64,000 nucleotides of DNA from a phage: the sequence record PZ296772.1; one strand, given 5' to 3'. Shown piece by piece: positions 19,662 through 51,033 of the stretch (positions within the stretch are counted from its first letter, which is position 1; the number at the start of each line of letters is the position of its first letter). The notes beneath the pieces are model-generated. The model saw only the letters and a program-made list of their open reading frames with translations. It was not told where the DNA came from and searched no databases. Position numbers and translations under genes: made by a program.

Positions 19662-19735
19662 GGCCCTGTAGCTCAACGGTTAGCAGCAGTCCCCTCATAA
19701 GGGAAAGGTTACCAGTTCGAATCTGGTCTGGGTCA
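19662..19735 (+). tRNA. tRNA with anticodon CAU (Met or Ile2/lysidine type)
   Basis: Hand-folded cloverleaf: acceptor GGCCCUG/CUGGGUC (1 mismatch), T-arm ACCAG-UUCGAAU-CUGGU, anticodon loop CUCAUAA; CCA not encoded. Confidence 0.65.
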
Positions 19736-19741
19736 TATATT

Positions 19742-19818
<77 letters not shown>

Positions 19819-47233: not shown

Positions 47234-47707
47234 ATGTTATTATCAGGCGCAAAATATAAAGAAGAAAAACAAAAATTTTATGATGCACAGAATGGTAAGT
47301 GTCCTATTTGCCACCGTGAATTAGACCCTGATGTTCAAGGTAACCATCTTGACCACGACCATGAATTAAACGGGCCAAAAGCTGGTAAGGTTCGTGGTTT
47401 ACTATGTAACCTGTGCAATGCAGCAGAAGGTCAAATGAAGCATAAGTTCAACCGTTCTGGTCTTAAAGGTCAAAACGTTGATTACCTCGAATGGCTTGAA
47501 GCTCTTCTTGCTTATTTGAAACAAGATTATTCTGATAATAATATCCATCCTAATTTTGTTCCAGACAAAACTAAAGAGTTCTCAAGACTAGGTAAAGAGG
47601 AAATGATGACTGAGATGCTTCAAAGAGGATTTGAATATAATGAATCTGATACTAAAACACAATTAATAGCTTCATTCAAAAAGCAGCTTAGAAAGAGTTT
47701 AAAATGA
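47234..47707 (+). CDS. 49: Recombination endonuclease VII (Holliday junction resolvase)
   Basis: 157-aa ORF with Zn-binding CPICHRELD...CNLCN; size as T4 gp49. Confidence 0.93.
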   Translation: MLLSGAKYKEEKQKFYDAQNGKCPICHRELDPDVQGNHLDHDHELNGPKAGKVRGLLCNLCNAAEGQMKHKFNRSGLKGQNVDYLEWLEALLAYLKQDYSDNNIHPNFVPDKTKEFSRLGKEEMMTEMLQRGFEYNESDTKTQLIASFKKQLRKSLK

Positions 47708-48241
47708 CGATTGAAAAAGAAATTGAAGGACTAATTCATAAAACTAATAAAGACCTTTTAAACGAGAATGCTAATAAAGATTCTCGTGTTTTTCCAACTC
47801 AACGGGACCTTATGGCTGGTATTGTGTCTAAACACATTGCCAAAAATATGGTCCCGTCTTTTATTATGAAAGCGCATGAAAGCGGAATTATCCATTTCCA
47901 CGATATTGATTATTCCCCTGCTCTTCCATTTACTAATTGCTGTTTAGTAGATTTAAAAGGAATGCTTGAGAACGGATTTAAGCTCGGTAATGCACAGATT
48001 GAAACTCCTAAATCAATCGGCGTTGCTACTGCAATTATGGCGCAAATTACTGCACAGGTTGCTTCCCACCAATATGGCGGAACGACTTTTGCGAATGTAG
48101 ATAAAGTACTTTCTCCTTATGTTAAACGCACCTATGCAAAACATATTGAGGATGCAGAAAAATGGCAAATCGCTGATGCGTTGAATTATGCTCAATCTAA
48201 AACAGAAAAAGATGTATATGACGCGTTTCAGGCGTATGAGT
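47704..48241 (+). CDS. nrdD: Anaerobic ribonucleotide reductase NrdD, exon 1 (3' boundary approximate)
   Basis: Reading frame MTIEKEIEGLIHKTNKDLL... stops 3 codons after ...DAFQAYE; the NrdD frame resumes about 1 kb downstream. Confidence 0.85.
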
Positions 48242-48452
48242 TAATTTAATTCAGGCTCATGTAAAACCGGTCTAAACGGGGAACCTCTCTAGTAGACAAT
48301 CCCGTGCTAAATGTTCTTTTGAACTAAATGCCTAACGACTAACCGTGATGAATGTAGCGGTGTAGAATAGAAGCTAATGCTATTCGAAACGGCCGGCATC
48401 GAAAGATGAAGATATAGTCTAATCTGCATGGCGACATGCAGCAGTCATCTTG

Positions 48453-48460
48453 TATAAATA
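48453..48460 (+). promoter_or_regulatory. T4-type late promoter TATAAATA inside intron, upstream of endonuclease ORF
   Basis: Exact TATAAATA 30 nt upstream of ATG 48490. Confidence 0.5.
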
Positions 48461-48489
48461 AGATTATCTTATGAATACGAGGTGAAACA

Positions 48490-49260
48490 ATGAAATGGAT
48501 AAAAAGACGTTGTACTAAAATAAAAGATAAAGACGCATTTACATACTTAGTTAAGTTTTCTAATGGCGACATTTATATCGGTTATAAAAAATTTAGAACA
48601 ATTAAAAACAAGCCCACAAACTGGAAAACTTACACAACGTCATCTAAGTATATAAATGAACGCTTAAAAACTGATACACCTACTAAATGGATAATTTTAA
48701 AAACATTTGATAGTTATAAAGATGCATTAAAACATGAAGAAGAGGTCATACGTAAATATTTTTATAGCAAAAAATGTTTAAATAAATCCATAGGCGGTAA
48801 AAAGTTTTATAAGCATCCGGATACTGAAGAACATATTCAAAAATTAAGAGATGCTCATAAGGGTAAAGTGTTATCCGAATCTCATAAAAACAATATAAAA
48901 TCTTCTGTGGCTGAATATTATGCTAAAAACAGAAGATCTAAGGAACATGTGCAAAATAATATCAATAGTCGAAAAAGTAAAAAACAAGTATCGATAAAGC
49001 TTAAAAATAAAACTTTTAGAAGTTTTAAAAAAGCAGCGGAATATTTAAATTGCACTGAAAGTGAAGTCGAAACTCATCCTCTTGTTTTGAGTATTAAGAC
49101 TACTATTCATAAAGTTCCTGAATATGTGGTTGTTGACGGTATTAAGTATACGTCTTATATAGAAGCAGCTAAAGCGCTAAATTTTCATCCTAGCACTATA
49201 AAAGAACGTTGCATATCTATGGACTATCCAAATTTTGTTGTTTCATATAAACGGGCATGA
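48490..49260 (+). CDS. Intron-encoded homing endonuclease (GIY-YIG-like N-terminus)
   Basis: 256-aa basic ORF; N-terminal TYLVKFSNGDIYIGY resembles GIY-(x9-11)-YIG; C-terminal repeated helix-turn-helix-like segments (AAEYLNCTESEV, AAKALNFHPSTI). Confidence 0.7.
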   Translation: MKWIKRRCTKIKDKDAFTYLVKFSNGDIYIGYKKFRTIKNKPTNWKTYTTSSKYINERLKTDTPTKWIILKTFDSYKDALKHEEEVIRKYFYSKKCLNKSIGGKKFYKHPDTEEHIQKLRDAHKGKVLSESHKNNIKSSVAEYYAKNRRSKEHVQNNINSRKSKKQVSIKLKNKTFRSFKKAAEYLNCTESEVETHPLVLSIKTTIHKVPEYVVVDGIKYTSYIEAAKALNFHPSTIKERCISMDYPNFVVSYKRA

Positions 49261-49274
49261 ATTTGCGACTCATG

Positions 49275-50566
49275 CTGAATATAATGATGAAGTAAATACA
49301 CTTTTCAGCTCTAATGGTCAAACGCCTTTTGTAACAATTACATTTGGTACGGGAACTGACTGGACTGAACGAATGATTCAGAAAGCAATTCTGAAAAATC
49401 GTATTAAAGGTCTTGGTCGTGATGGGATAACTCCTATTTTCCCTAAGCTTGTTATGTTCGTTGAAGAAGGTGTTAATCTTTATAAAGATGATCCGAACTA
49501 TGATATTAAGCAGCTTGCTTTAGAGTGTGCAAGCAAAAGGATGTATCCTGATATTATTTCAGCTAAGAACAATAAAGCTATCACTGGTTCATCTGTTCCT
49601 GTTTCTCCAATGGGTTGCCGTAGTTTCTTGAGCGTATGGAAAGATTCGACTGGTAATGAAATTCTTGATGGACGTAATAATCTTGGTGTTGTAACACTGA
49701 ATCTTCCTCGCATCGCGTTAGATTCTTATATTGGAACACAGTTCAATGAACAGAAATTTATCGAATTGTTCAATGAACGAATGGATTTATGTTTTGAAGC
49801 TTTGATGTGTAGAATTAGTTCCTTAAAAGGAATTAAAGCTACTGTTGCTCCTATTCTTTACCAAGAAGGTGCATTCGGGGTTCGTCTTAAACCCGATGAC
49901 GATATAATTGAGTTATTTAAAAACGGTAGAAGTTCAGTGTCTTTAGGATACATTGGTATTCACGAATTGAATATTCTTATCGGTCGTGATATTGGACAAG
50001 AAATTTTAACTAAAATGAATGCTCATCTTAAACAGTGGACTGAAAGAACTGGGTTTGCTTTTAGTTTGTATTCTACTCCTGCTGAAAACCTTTGCTATCG
50101 CTTCTGTAAACTTGATACAGAAAAATATGGAAGTGTAAAGGATGTTACTGATAAAGGTTGGTACACTAACAGTTTCCATGTTTCAGTAGAAGAAAATGTT
50201 ACTCCGTTTGAAAAGATTTCTCGTGAAGCGCCATATCATTTCATTGCGACAGGTGGTCACATTTCTTATGTTGAACTTCCTGATATGAAAAATAACTTAA
50301 AAGGTCTTGAGGCTGTATGGGATTATGCCGCACAACATTTAGATTATTTTGGTGTTAATATGCCAGTAGATAAATGTTTTACATGTGGAAGTACCCATGA
50401 AATGACTCCTACTGAAAACGGATTTGTTTGTTCTATTTGCGGAGAAACTGATCCTAAAAAGATGAATACCATAAGAAGAACATGTGGTTATTTGGGAAAT
50501 CCGAACGAACGCGGATTTAATCTCGGTAAAAATAAAGAAATCATGCATAGGGTTAAACACCAATGA
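49275..50566 (+). CDS. nrdD: Anaerobic ribonucleotide reductase NrdD, exon 2 (5' boundary approximate)
   Basis: Frame ...EYNDEVNTLFSSNGQ... to C-terminal glycyl-radical region with Zn-binding CFTCGSTHEM...CSICGE and RRTCGYLG. Confidence 0.85.
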
Positions 50567-51033
50567 ATTATGATAGATTTTATCCCTGTGATTTTGTGAA
50601 TGGCCCTGGATGCAGGGTCGTTCTTTTCGTCACAGGTTGTTTGCATAAATGCGAAGGGTGTTATAATAAATCAACATGGAATGCTAGAAATGGTATTCCA
50701 TTCACTGGTGAAACACTGGAACAATTAATTGAATGTTTGAATAATGATTATACAGAAGGATTAACTATAACTGGGGGAGACCCTCTTTATCCTGATAACA
50801 GAGATGTGATTCATTGCATTGTTCAAACAGTAAAAAATCTTTATCCCAGTAAAAGCATTTGGTTGTGGACAGGATATAAGTTTGAAGATATTAAACAACT
50901 AGAAATGCTTAAATATGTTGATGTTATTATTGATGGGAAGTATGAGAAAAATCTTCCGACCAAAAAGCTGTGGCGAGGATCAGATAATCAGCGACTTTGG
51001 TCAAATACCGATGGGGTGTGGAAACATGATTAA
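50563..51033 (+). CDS. nrdG: Anaerobic RNR activating enzyme NrdG (radical SAM)
   Basis: 156-aa ORF with CLHKCEGCYN radical-SAM cluster motif; ATGA overlap with nrdD. Confidence 0.92.
   Translation: MNYDRFYPCDFVNGPGCRVVLFVTGCLHKCEGCYNKSTWNARNGIPFTGETLEQLIECLNNDYTEGLTITGGDPLYPDNRDVIHCIVQTVKNLYPSKSIWLWTGYKFEDIKQLEMLKYVDVIIDGKYEKNLPTKKLWRGSDNQRLWSNTDGVWKHD

Follow-up and report, generated by a model that had tools for sequence, protein, structure and literature searches.

In the 64,000-nt stretch of phage DNA analysed here (sequence record PZ296772.1; hereafter the window), nrdD is interrupted by a 1045-nt insert at positions 48242-49286 of the window. There is little doubt that this insert is a mobile IA2 group I intron, that its insertion point coincides to the nucleotide with that of the T4 nrdD (sunY) intron (...UAUGAGU|intron|AUGAAG...), and that it carries a homolog of the endonuclease I-TevII. 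The evidence was computed and consists of the intron boundaries, the covarying ribozyme structure, the homology and fold of the enzyme, a regulatory hairpin, and the mosaic flanks of the exons.

Boundaries and ribozyme structure of the intron

The two nrdD exons are on the plus strand, as is the intron (48242-49286, 1045 nt), which was delimited by the colinearity of the spliced product and by Rfam RF00028. Exon 1 (47704-48241, 538 nt) was defined by the list of open reading frames, by Pfam NRDD profile positions 1-141, and by the intronless junction, and exon 2 (49287-50566, 1280 nt) matches NRDD profile positions 145-562 plus Gly_radical. In the list of reading frames, the exon-1 frame runs from 47704 to 48249 and terminates in ...AFQAYELI*, and the exon-2 frame reaches 50566. 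An earlier note on this DNA had recognised this stop, a 256-aa basic ORF, and a ~1-kb group I intron splitting nrdD at the T4 position. The reading frames and pI (9.9), the RF00028 match together with NRDD matches on both halves, and alignment with T4 and intronless phages bear these observations out.

When the intron is excised in silico, with the 5' splice site after U48241 and G49286 as the terminal intron G, the result is a 605-aa NrdD that is colinear with those of intronless phages. Hundreds of intronless nrdD genes align without a break across the spliced junction and read GCTTATGAA|TATGAAGTA there, and the homologous T4 junction, once joined, gives NRDD_BPT4 exactly, as found by looking up the deposited T4 NrdD protein. 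In spliced RNA, the ligated exon junction would read ...UAUGAGU-AUGAAGUA... Of the two 5' sites put forward previously, U48241 proves correct and U48235 does not. The 3' site suggested at that time, after G49274, is 12 nt off the true site; it is in frame, but the four extra residues that it would add (SEYN) occur in no intronless NrdD, and the position falls inside the conserved P9.2 stem (49270-49275).

An insert of this kind could also persist without splicing, in which case NrdD would be produced in two separate chains or would be missing. Every inspected GenBank record of the window-type allele annotates NrdD as two separate fragments with no joined CDS, and the spliced 605-aa product was absent from the protein collection searched. 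The two exons, however, are undamaged and in frame, and their pN of 0.005 indicates purifying selection. As described below, a complete group I fold is kept by compensatory changes, the 5' site has a U-G wobble, and the terminal G is conserved. The T4 homolog, moreover, is the classical self-splicing sunY intron. The probability of an unspliced insert is therefore close to nil. Immediately downstream, the activase gene nrdG (50563-51033, plus strand; Pfam Fer4_12 and Radical_SAM) overlaps the nrdD stop codon; mobC, which lies between nrdD and nrdG in T4 and SA20RB, is absent there in the window.

The boundaries and covarying ribozyme structure, both shown computationally, place the insert among the group I introns, in subgroup IA2. 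A covariance model, as proposed in the earlier note, does recognise it: the local RF00028 match at 48210-48441 (73.2 bits, E 2.4e-18, model positions 1-253) lies above the gathering score of 50 bits. Scans of the whole window against Rfam, with gathering and E-value thresholds, missed the intron and returned only two tRNAs. Thus, whole-window scans can miss a genuine 73-bit intron.

As read from the sequence, P1 (48236-48260, plus strand) pairs the 5' exon AUGAGU (48236-48241) with the internal guide GCUCAU (48255-48260), which places a U48241-G48255 wobble at the 5' cleavage site. The introns L020 and L017 have CUUGAGU/GCUCAAG at this position, and a P1 with a U-G wobble together with a terminal 3' G is an arrangement common to the window, T4, L017 and L020. 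A P10 pairing of UUCA (48250-48253) with UGAA (49288-49291) is possible. The ribozyme core, P3-P9 (48267-48441, plus strand), was assigned by comparison with T4 and by covariation over seven introns. Its helices are P3 (48267-72/48391-96), P4 (48276-81/48300-05), P5 (48286-88/48294-96), P6 (48306-07/48330-31), P6a (48313-16/48321-24), P7 (48337-41/48415-19), P7.1 (48342-46/48357-61), P7.2 (48365-70/48380-85), P8 (48397-400/48405-08) and P9 (48424-30/48435-41), all on the plus strand.

Relative to T4, 76 base pairs could be compared, with 17 compensatory double changes, six one-sided changes and one broken pair; the last, a C-U in P5, counts against the reading preferred here. Over 50 pairs in seven related introns, 97.7% of cells are paired and 24 of the 50 pairs have double changes, a result matched by none of 500 shuffles; slid controls were 33-41% paired. 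P7 is invariant across the compared introns and is thus uninformative for covariation. The IA hallmark helices P7.1 and P7.2 are both present, have five compensatory changes between them relative to T4, and were both recovered by RNAalifold. Core identity among the seven introns is 71-80% in all directions and thus does not reveal the closest relative.

The 3' end of the intron forms a P9.2-like hairpin (49255-49275, plus strand; GCAUGA-AUUUGCGAC-UCAUGC) that includes the stop codon of the intron ORF (UGA, 49258-49260). Four of its six stem pairs are compensatory double changes relative to T4 (GUAGAG/CUCUAC), and hairpins with a GCGA-containing loop are found at the P9.2 position in L008, L017, L020, an Aeromonas intron and a Vibrio intron. 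A terminator scan flagged this hairpin as a minus-strand terminator look-alike. A long-range pairing between the start and the end of the ORF (48484-92/49236-44) may also be considered but is unproven; T4 keeps it via one-sided changes only, and it was not found in L017 or L020.

The endonuclease gene and its upstream region

The homing endonuclease gene (48490-49260, plus strand; 256 aa plus stop) encodes a basic protein (pI 9.9; 57 K+R vs 26 D+E) that aligns end to end with T4 I-TevII (144/257 identical, 56% aa, E 2e-101). Its layout comprises a GIY-YIG domain (residues ~1-106), a NUMOD3-like helix region (~110-165), and two HTH-like modules (~171-193 and ~213-253). The GIY-YIG-like N-terminus and HTH-like C-terminal repeats described previously were both recovered by Pfam, as SegE_GIY-YIG (27.5 bits, cut-off 25) and NUMOD1 (25.3 bits, cut-off 22.8), and the ORF is also matched by PHROG. 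A single-sequence phmmer search against PDB sequences gave no match, and I-TevI was reached with a 27-sequence family profile, which matches its DNA-binding domain (1i3j, E 6e-6). The alignments that had been suggested against I-Tev and Seg-family proteins thus led to I-TevII over the full length, to I-TevI through the DNA-binding domain, and to SegE through Pfam.

Residues Y19, Y29, G31, E83 and N98 (motif FTY19...Y29-I-G31 plus E83 and N98) are unchanged in the 27 family members; the canonical GIY-YIG Arg could not be placed. The AF2 model of the protein (pLDDT 90) has the GIY-YIG fold. To our knowledge, there is no solved structure of I-TevII. The ORF and I-TevII share one 50% cluster, and among 5.8 billion proteins this family forms only two 90% clusters, with nothing between them.

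Upstream of the ORF, RNA folding predicts a hairpin (48445-48485, plus strand) that hides the Shine-Dalgarno sequence GAGG (48479-48482) in read-through transcripts. The fold of 48442-48500 has a free energy of -17.3 kcal/mol (z = -5.0), compared with -17.4 kcal/mol for its T4 counterpart, and an RNA beginning at 48467 is unstructured (0 kcal/mol). [quoted passage not shown] Within the hairpin, in its 5' arm and loop, lies TATAAATA (48453-48460, plus strand), which is an exact match to the T4 late-promoter motif, begins to the 5' side of the ATG at a distance of 29 nt, and is also found in T4 at the homologous place. The earlier note had called it a late promoter. The exact match stands, but the motif is not enriched in this AT-rich window (7 observed vs 9.3 expected) and is not significant in itself; positional homology with T4 nevertheless suggests that the site is a late promoter.

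A further block, CTTATGAATACGAGGTGAA (48468-48486, plus strand), overlaps the ribosome-binding site and resembles the homing site. It agrees with the intronless junction CTTATGAAT|ATGAAGTAAA at 16 of 19 positions, which is the best match in the entire intron and is reached by 4 of 2000 shuffles. A similar block in the T4 intron is attributed to Loizos et al. in the summary given in PMC3984707, and the T4 similarity is also noted in PMC2988022. The block may be an operator or else a relic of invasion by the endonuclease gene.

Divergence from T4, distribution and mobility

The intron is 66.7% identical to that of T4 in nucleotide sequence, with 71% identity in the ribozyme, 63% in the ORF and 62% in the 3' tail, and dS between the two intron/endonuclease alleles is ~1.5. 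Because the ribozyme, ORF and 3' tail have diverged to a similar degree, the whole cassette represents a second allele rather than a conserved intron whose ORF was exchanged. Judged by sequence, then, the window intron is distinct from the T4 allele, to which it is not nearly identical.

The earlier note had instead proposed that a GIY-YIG enzyme would differ from the T4 intron ORF, and that an unrelated gene had replaced the original ORF within a conserved nrdD intron. Such a replacement might account for the ORF being just 56% (aa) and 63% (nt) identical to I-TevII when the host gene is ~96% identical, and related cores in VB-EcoM-WM and Vibrio phage F96 do carry another enzyme family (an HNH ORF in P6). 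However, I-TevII is itself a GIY-YIG enzyme according to the T4 RefSeq annotation and Table 1 of PMC2988022, and the window ORF is colinear with it over all 256 residues. The ORF also follows P9 as in T4, shares the block at the ribosome-binding site and overlaps P9.2 in the same way, and the ribozyme is as diverged as the ORF, which leaves no conserved intron around a foreign gene. More distant I-TevII-like genes are likewise found at this position: P0003 and P0004, from metagenome contigs, are two further lineages (36-37% aa identity) whose genes are placed after P9 of introns at the same nrdD site. No relatives of the ORF were found in IMG/VR viral contigs. Since the ORF is homologous to I-TevII throughout, and I-TevII is a GIY-YIG enzyme, replacement is highly improbable, and divergence of the entire cassette is preferred.

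The exons are mosaic around the insertion site. Exon 1 is 100% identical to T4 upstream of 48212 and 77% identical in its final 30 nt (48212-48241); exon 2 is 72.5% identical in its first ~40 nt (49287-49326) and ~97-100% identical beyond, and its differences are synonymous without exception. In the 24 codons around the junction, 17 synonymous differences were counted, compared with a pS of 0.126 in the other 581 codons. These diverged flanks are probably co-conversion tracts.

The window-type allele (at least 95% aa identity) is present in 45 GenBank phage records and the T4 type in ~24. The same intron (at least 99.6% nt identity) occurs in both Tequatrovirus and Mosigvirus phages. All carriers share the exon markers adjacent to the intron, and the extent of these markers varies between carriers. 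Such a pattern, with one allele spread over two genera and exon tracts of differing length beside it, is the footprint that homing leaves.

It is also conceivable that the intron splices but its endonuclease is inactive or no longer homing, and that the element is a vertically inherited passenger. Endonuclease-gene decay is frequent in T-even introns, as illustrated by an internal deletion in 215Ecol030PP, a frameshift in F1/FN, a split ORF in 236Ecol005PP, and a 2-nt deletion in U5. However, the window ORF is intact and its protein is identical to that of HY03, the ORF is full length at at least 99% identity in 41 of the 45 records, dN/dS relative to T4 I-TevII is 0.26, and the motif residues are conserved. 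The occurrence in two genera with variable flanking tracts also argues against vertical inheritance, and a passenger element is thus considered improbable. An intact endonuclease copy such as that of the window is likely to be active, with some uncertainty given the decay in sister phages.

For a mobile intron, a mechanism can be proposed in which splicing, late expression, cleavage and homing are inferred from T4 experiments. The ribozyme (P1-P9, 48236-48441, and the 3' hairpin, 49255-49275) would excise itself from the pre-mRNA by guanosine-initiated two-step transesterification and restore the 605-aa NrdD. The enzyme joins a GIY-YIG nuclease domain to an extended DNA-binding region like that of I-TevI. 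In early and middle read-through transcripts, the endonuclease gene would be silent, with its Shine-Dalgarno sequence locked in the hairpin, and late transcripts starting just after TATAAATA would lack the 5' arm of the hairpin and permit translation. The endonuclease would then cleave intronless nrdD, close to the insertion site, in phages that infect the same cell, and repair from the intron-bearing genome would copy the intron along with flanking exon sequence of variable length. Historically, the deeply diverged second allele probably entered the T-even pool separately from the T4 allele and spread by homing.

Doubtful, but deserving of some consideration, is a difference between the window-type enzyme and T4 I-TevII in target specificity or cleavage position. 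The two proteins differ by 44%, and near where cleavage is expected (+13 to +25 of exon 2) each allele carries a separate set of synonymous changes in the exon. If specificity did differ, the alleles could compete, with one cutting spliced-copy or intron-deleted versions of the exon context of the other, or each could protect its host gene from the other; they would also be a natural pair for dissecting I-TevII recognition.

Overall, the element is an ordinary one of a well-understood kind, and the understanding of group I intron homing is unchanged by it. The window-type allele appears to be uncharacterised, as no description of it was found in the literature searched, yet it is the commoner of the two in sequenced genomes (45 vs ~24 records). 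T-even phages thus hold two deeply diverged nrdD intron/I-TevII alleles at one site, which provide a natural 56%-identical variant for studies of I-TevII recognition and a clean case of variable-length co-conversion tracts.

Comparison with known systems

The closest parallel is the T4 nrdD (sunY) intron with I-TevII. Both introns interrupt the same host gene at the same nucleotide (GAGU|AUGAAG) and have an IA2 architecture with P7.1 and P7.2, and in both the ORF lies 3' of P9 and runs into the 3'-terminal hairpin, which holds a remote 3' splice site. Upstream of the ORF, each also has TATAAATA, a hairpin in which the ribosome-binding site is sequestered and, at that site, a block that resembles the homing site; their GIY-YIG enzymes are homologous (258 aa in T4 vs 256 aa in the window). 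In contrast, the T4 intron is 1033 nt rather than 1045 nt in length, and the window differs from it by 9 nt inserted downstream of the promoter motif and ahead of the ribosome-binding site, a longer P7.2 and shorter P8, an extra stem formed by the loop of the regulatory hairpin, and a different set of synonymous markers in the co-converted exon flanks.

The T4 td intron with I-TevI is likewise an IA2 phage intron controlled by a late promoter plus hairpin, and the td introns of RB9, T6 and TuIa match the window core exactly over 42 consecutive nucleotides. I-TevI resembles the window enzyme in that its catalytic domain is of the GIY-YIG type and its DNA-binding domain is extended, with an HTH at the C-terminus. 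Among the free-standing Seg endonucleases of T-even phages, the SegE family (Pfam PF19835) is the best Pfam match of the N-terminal domain of the window ORF, and hundreds of profile relatives have the pattern Y..YIG..Y..SS..E..N. However, Seg enzymes are not intron-borne, have targets that are intergenic or in neighbouring genes, and differ in their C-terminal halves. Finally, the nrdD introns of ~140-kb E. coli and Vibrio phages (such as VB-EcoM-WM and Vibrio phage F96) share the host gene family and have IA2 cores that are 76-79% identical, with 40 nt of P7-P7.1 in VB-EcoM-WM identical to the window. Unlike the window intron, they are inserted at ...SMG|CRS... and carry an HNH ORF in the P6 loop, not after P9.

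The interrupted nrdD gene and its splice sites

The interval 47704-50566 matches many Tequatrovirus and Mosigvirus genomes (e.g. vB_EcoM_F1, JB75, and SHSML-52-1) over its full length at 96-98% identity, and its neighbours, predicted from the ORF list and Pfam, are endonuclease VII (gp49; 47234-47707) and nrdG (50563-51033). The window is thus a T4-like phage, shown on the complementary strand relative to the T4 map. The nrdG start lies 4 nt ahead of the nrdD stop codon (50563-50566); mobC, a homing endonuclease gene, is therefore absent from this junction, where T4 and vB_EcoM_SA20RB carry it. Only two tRNA genes were found in the whole window by the Rfam scan (19662-19735 and 19742-19815). 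The T4 tRNA cluster comprises eight tRNAs, and the tRNA set of this phage thus appears reduced.

As described in the earlier note, the ORF list contains an nrdD frame at 47704-48249 that ends in ...AFQAYELI*, a basic 256-aa ORF (48490-49260, plus strand; pI 9.9), and a frame holding ...EYNDEVNTLFSSNGQ... that extends to 50566. Pfam NRDD profile positions 1-141 match the first nrdD piece and 145-562 the second, and these complementary ranges indicate one interrupted gene. Excision of 48242-49286 (plus strand, 1045 nt) joins exons 47704-48241 and 49287-50566 into an 1818-nt coding sequence for a NrdD of 605 aa, and a 600-nt query built from both exon ends aligns in one piece to the intronless nrdD of hundreds of phages. 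At the junction (slash), intronless phages read GCT TAT GAA / TAT GAA GTA and the window reads GCG TAT GAG T / AT GAA GTA. T4 has a 1033-nt intron at the homologous junction, removal of which gives the deposited T4 NrdD (NRDD_BPT4, AAD42633.1) residue for residue. In P1, the 5' exon AUGAGU (48236-41) pairs with GCUCAU (48255-60), which places a U48241-G48255 wobble at the cleavage site, and the last intron nucleotide is G49286. Therefore, of the two 5' splice sites proposed previously, U48241 is retained and U48235 is not, and the proposed 3' site, G49274, is replaced by G49286. G49274 is part of a stem, in a conserved hairpin at the 3' end of the intron, and its use would add four residues that are present in no intronless NrdD.

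The ribozyme core

The covariance-model check called for in the earlier note gave an Rfam Intron_gpI match at 48210-48441 (73.2 bits, gathering score 50; E 2.4e-18). This match came from a 1.35-kb local scan. When the full 64 kb was scanned with Rfam, once at the gathering threshold and once at an E-value threshold, filtering left the intron unreported. The difference is relevant here, as failure of a covariance model had been named as a refuting result: if a 73-bit match can be lost in a 64-kb scan, the lack of a hit at that scale is not a safe refutation.

The structure was also compared with T4 using a hand-built IA2 model (P1, P3-P9, P7.1, P7.2, a ribosome-binding-site hairpin, and P9.2). 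Of its 76 pairs, 52 are identical, six differ on one side and still pair, 17 carry compensatory double changes, and one, in P5, is broken. RNAalifold recovered the same helices from seven related cores. When P7 is included as a pseudoknot, 97.7% of the cells in this alignment are paired and 24/50 pairs show double changes; none of 500 shuffles reaches any of these measures, and only 33-41% of cells pair in a slid-partner control. Selection thus maintains a group I fold in the intron RNA. A terminator-like hairpin flagged on the minus strand (49255-49275) is the intron P9.2 hairpin seen on the other strand. Similarly, SA20RB is annotated with a "rho-independent terminator" immediately before the late promoter, and this element is the equivalent of P9.

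The intron-encoded endonuclease and its upstream region

The one unusual claim in the earlier note, replacement of the endonuclease gene, fails. It relied on the mistaken view that the T4 intron ORF is not of the GIY-YIG type; this ORF, I-TevII, is annotated as a GIY-YIG enzyme in the T4 record and reviewed as one in PMC2988022 (Table 1). The window ORF aligns with I-TevII across all 256 residues (144 of 257 positions identical, E 2e-101), and is its homolog rather than a replacement. The GIY-YIG-like N-terminus is recognised by Pfam (SegE_GIY-YIG, 27.5 against a cut-off of 25). The helix-turn-helix-like C-terminus is likewise borne out, by NUMOD1 (25.3 against 22.8) and by a 27-member family profile, in which a NUMOD3-like helix and the C-terminal HTH match the DNA-binding domain of I-TevI (1i3j, E 6e-6); Foldseek with the whole extended model returned nothing significant. 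Y19, Y29, G31, Y48, S51, S52, E83, and N98 are invariant among the 27 members.

Two discrete classes of the protein exist within the phage collection, one of at least 95% identity (45 records) and one of ~56%, the T4 type (~24 records), with none of intermediate identity, and a search of 5.8 billion proteins found only these two 90% clusters. Between the window ORF and I-TevII, dN/dS is 0.26 and dS about 1.5, which indicates that the two have long been diverging under purifying selection.

The predicted late promoter TATAAATA is present exactly at 48453-48460. However, the motif occurs seven times in the window against 9.3 expected and is not significant by itself, so we infer a promoter here from homology. 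It occupies the 5' arm and loop of a hairpin formed within 48442-48500 (-17.3 kcal/mol, z -5.0) with the Shine-Dalgarno GAGG in the 3' arm, and an RNA starting at 48467 is predicted to be unstructured; T4 has the same arrangement (-17.4 kcal/mol). Overlapping the endonuclease ribosome-binding site, 48468-48486 (CTTATGAATACGAGGTGAA) agrees with the homing site of intronless nrdD at 16 of 19 positions, which 4 of 2000 shuffles reach. A 9-nt insertion in the window allele makes this match two bases longer than its T4 counterpart. The similar T4 block was used by Loizos et al., as summarised in PMC3984707, to argue for endonuclease-gene invasion, and a role as an operator was suggested subsequently (PMC2988022).

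Mobility, decay, and relation to the T4 intron

Exon 1 is 100% identical to T4 upstream of 48212. Identity is 77% in its last 30 nt, 71% in the ribozyme core, 54% in the P9-to-ATG spacer, 63% in the endonuclease ORF, 62% in the 3' tail, and 72.5% in the first 40 nt of exon 2, before rising to about 97-100% after 49326. The junction flank differences are all synonymous, 17 in 24 codons versus a pS of 0.126 in the other 581. Carriers occur in two genera, Tequatrovirus and Mosigvirus, and across them the intron itself is at least 99.6% identical. Every carrier has CAG GCG TAT GAG T / ATGAAGTAAATACACTTTTCAG beside it, and the outer markers (TAT GAC GCG TTT upstream, AGC TCT AAT downstream) are present in some and replaced by intronless-type sequence in others, a pattern that probably traces co-conversion tracts of differing lengths. 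T4-type introns have a different set of flank markers, and the two alleles therefore arrived separately.

The window endonuclease gene is intact, in contrast to decayed copies in sister phages. 215Ecol030PP (L006, 501-979) carries the same allele with a ~566-nt internal endonuclease-gene deletion, leaving a 479-nt intron, and has shorter co-conversion tracts on both sides. The window-type gene of F1/FN (L016, vB_EcoM_F1, 787-1558) is frameshifted by one extra base and annotated as two ORFs, the T4-type gene of U5 (L011, about 480) is frameshifted by a 2-nt deletion, and the ORF of 236Ecol005PP is split in two.

A profile search recovered two further I-TevII-like protein lineages, P0003 (267 aa) and P0004 (257 aa), at 36-37% identity. 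On metagenome contigs (L017-L022) their genes lie beyond P9 in group I introns that occupy the same nucleotide of nrdD (...CUUGAGU/...AAUG/AUGAA...), and the nrdD exons there are far more diverged from T4-like phages. The association of this enzyme family with this site is therefore old. Separately, a 40-nt stretch spanning P7 and P7.1 (48327-48366; L008, 1786-1825) is shared without mismatch with an intron in nrdD of VB-EcoM-WM, a 139-kb phage. That intron differs in its nrdD site (...SMG/CRS...) and in carrying an HNH ORF in P6. Recombination between introns, or else strong constraint, may account for the shared stretch.

In GenBank, the window-type sequence in 45 phage records is called "homing endonuclease", "intron-associated endonuclease 2", or "hypothetical protein", and nrdD is annotated as two fragments in every record inspected. 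The exact protein is also filed as "transposase" in bacterial assemblies (WP_080181647.1, Salmonella enterica; WP_171921553.1, E. coli), probably as misnamed phage DNA. No paper describing this second allele was found in the literature searched, which did not include Sandegren & Sjoberg 2004.

Overall, the split nrdD, the group I intron, and the GIY-YIG ORF stand, and endonuclease replacement and G49274 do not. The observation holds up, with exact limits now assigned, and the element is an unremarkable example of a thoroughly familiar type. In every testable feature the element would work like the T4 nrdD (sunY) intron with I-TevII, and its insertion site, architecture, and protein homology place it in that lineage, as an allele distinct from that of T4.
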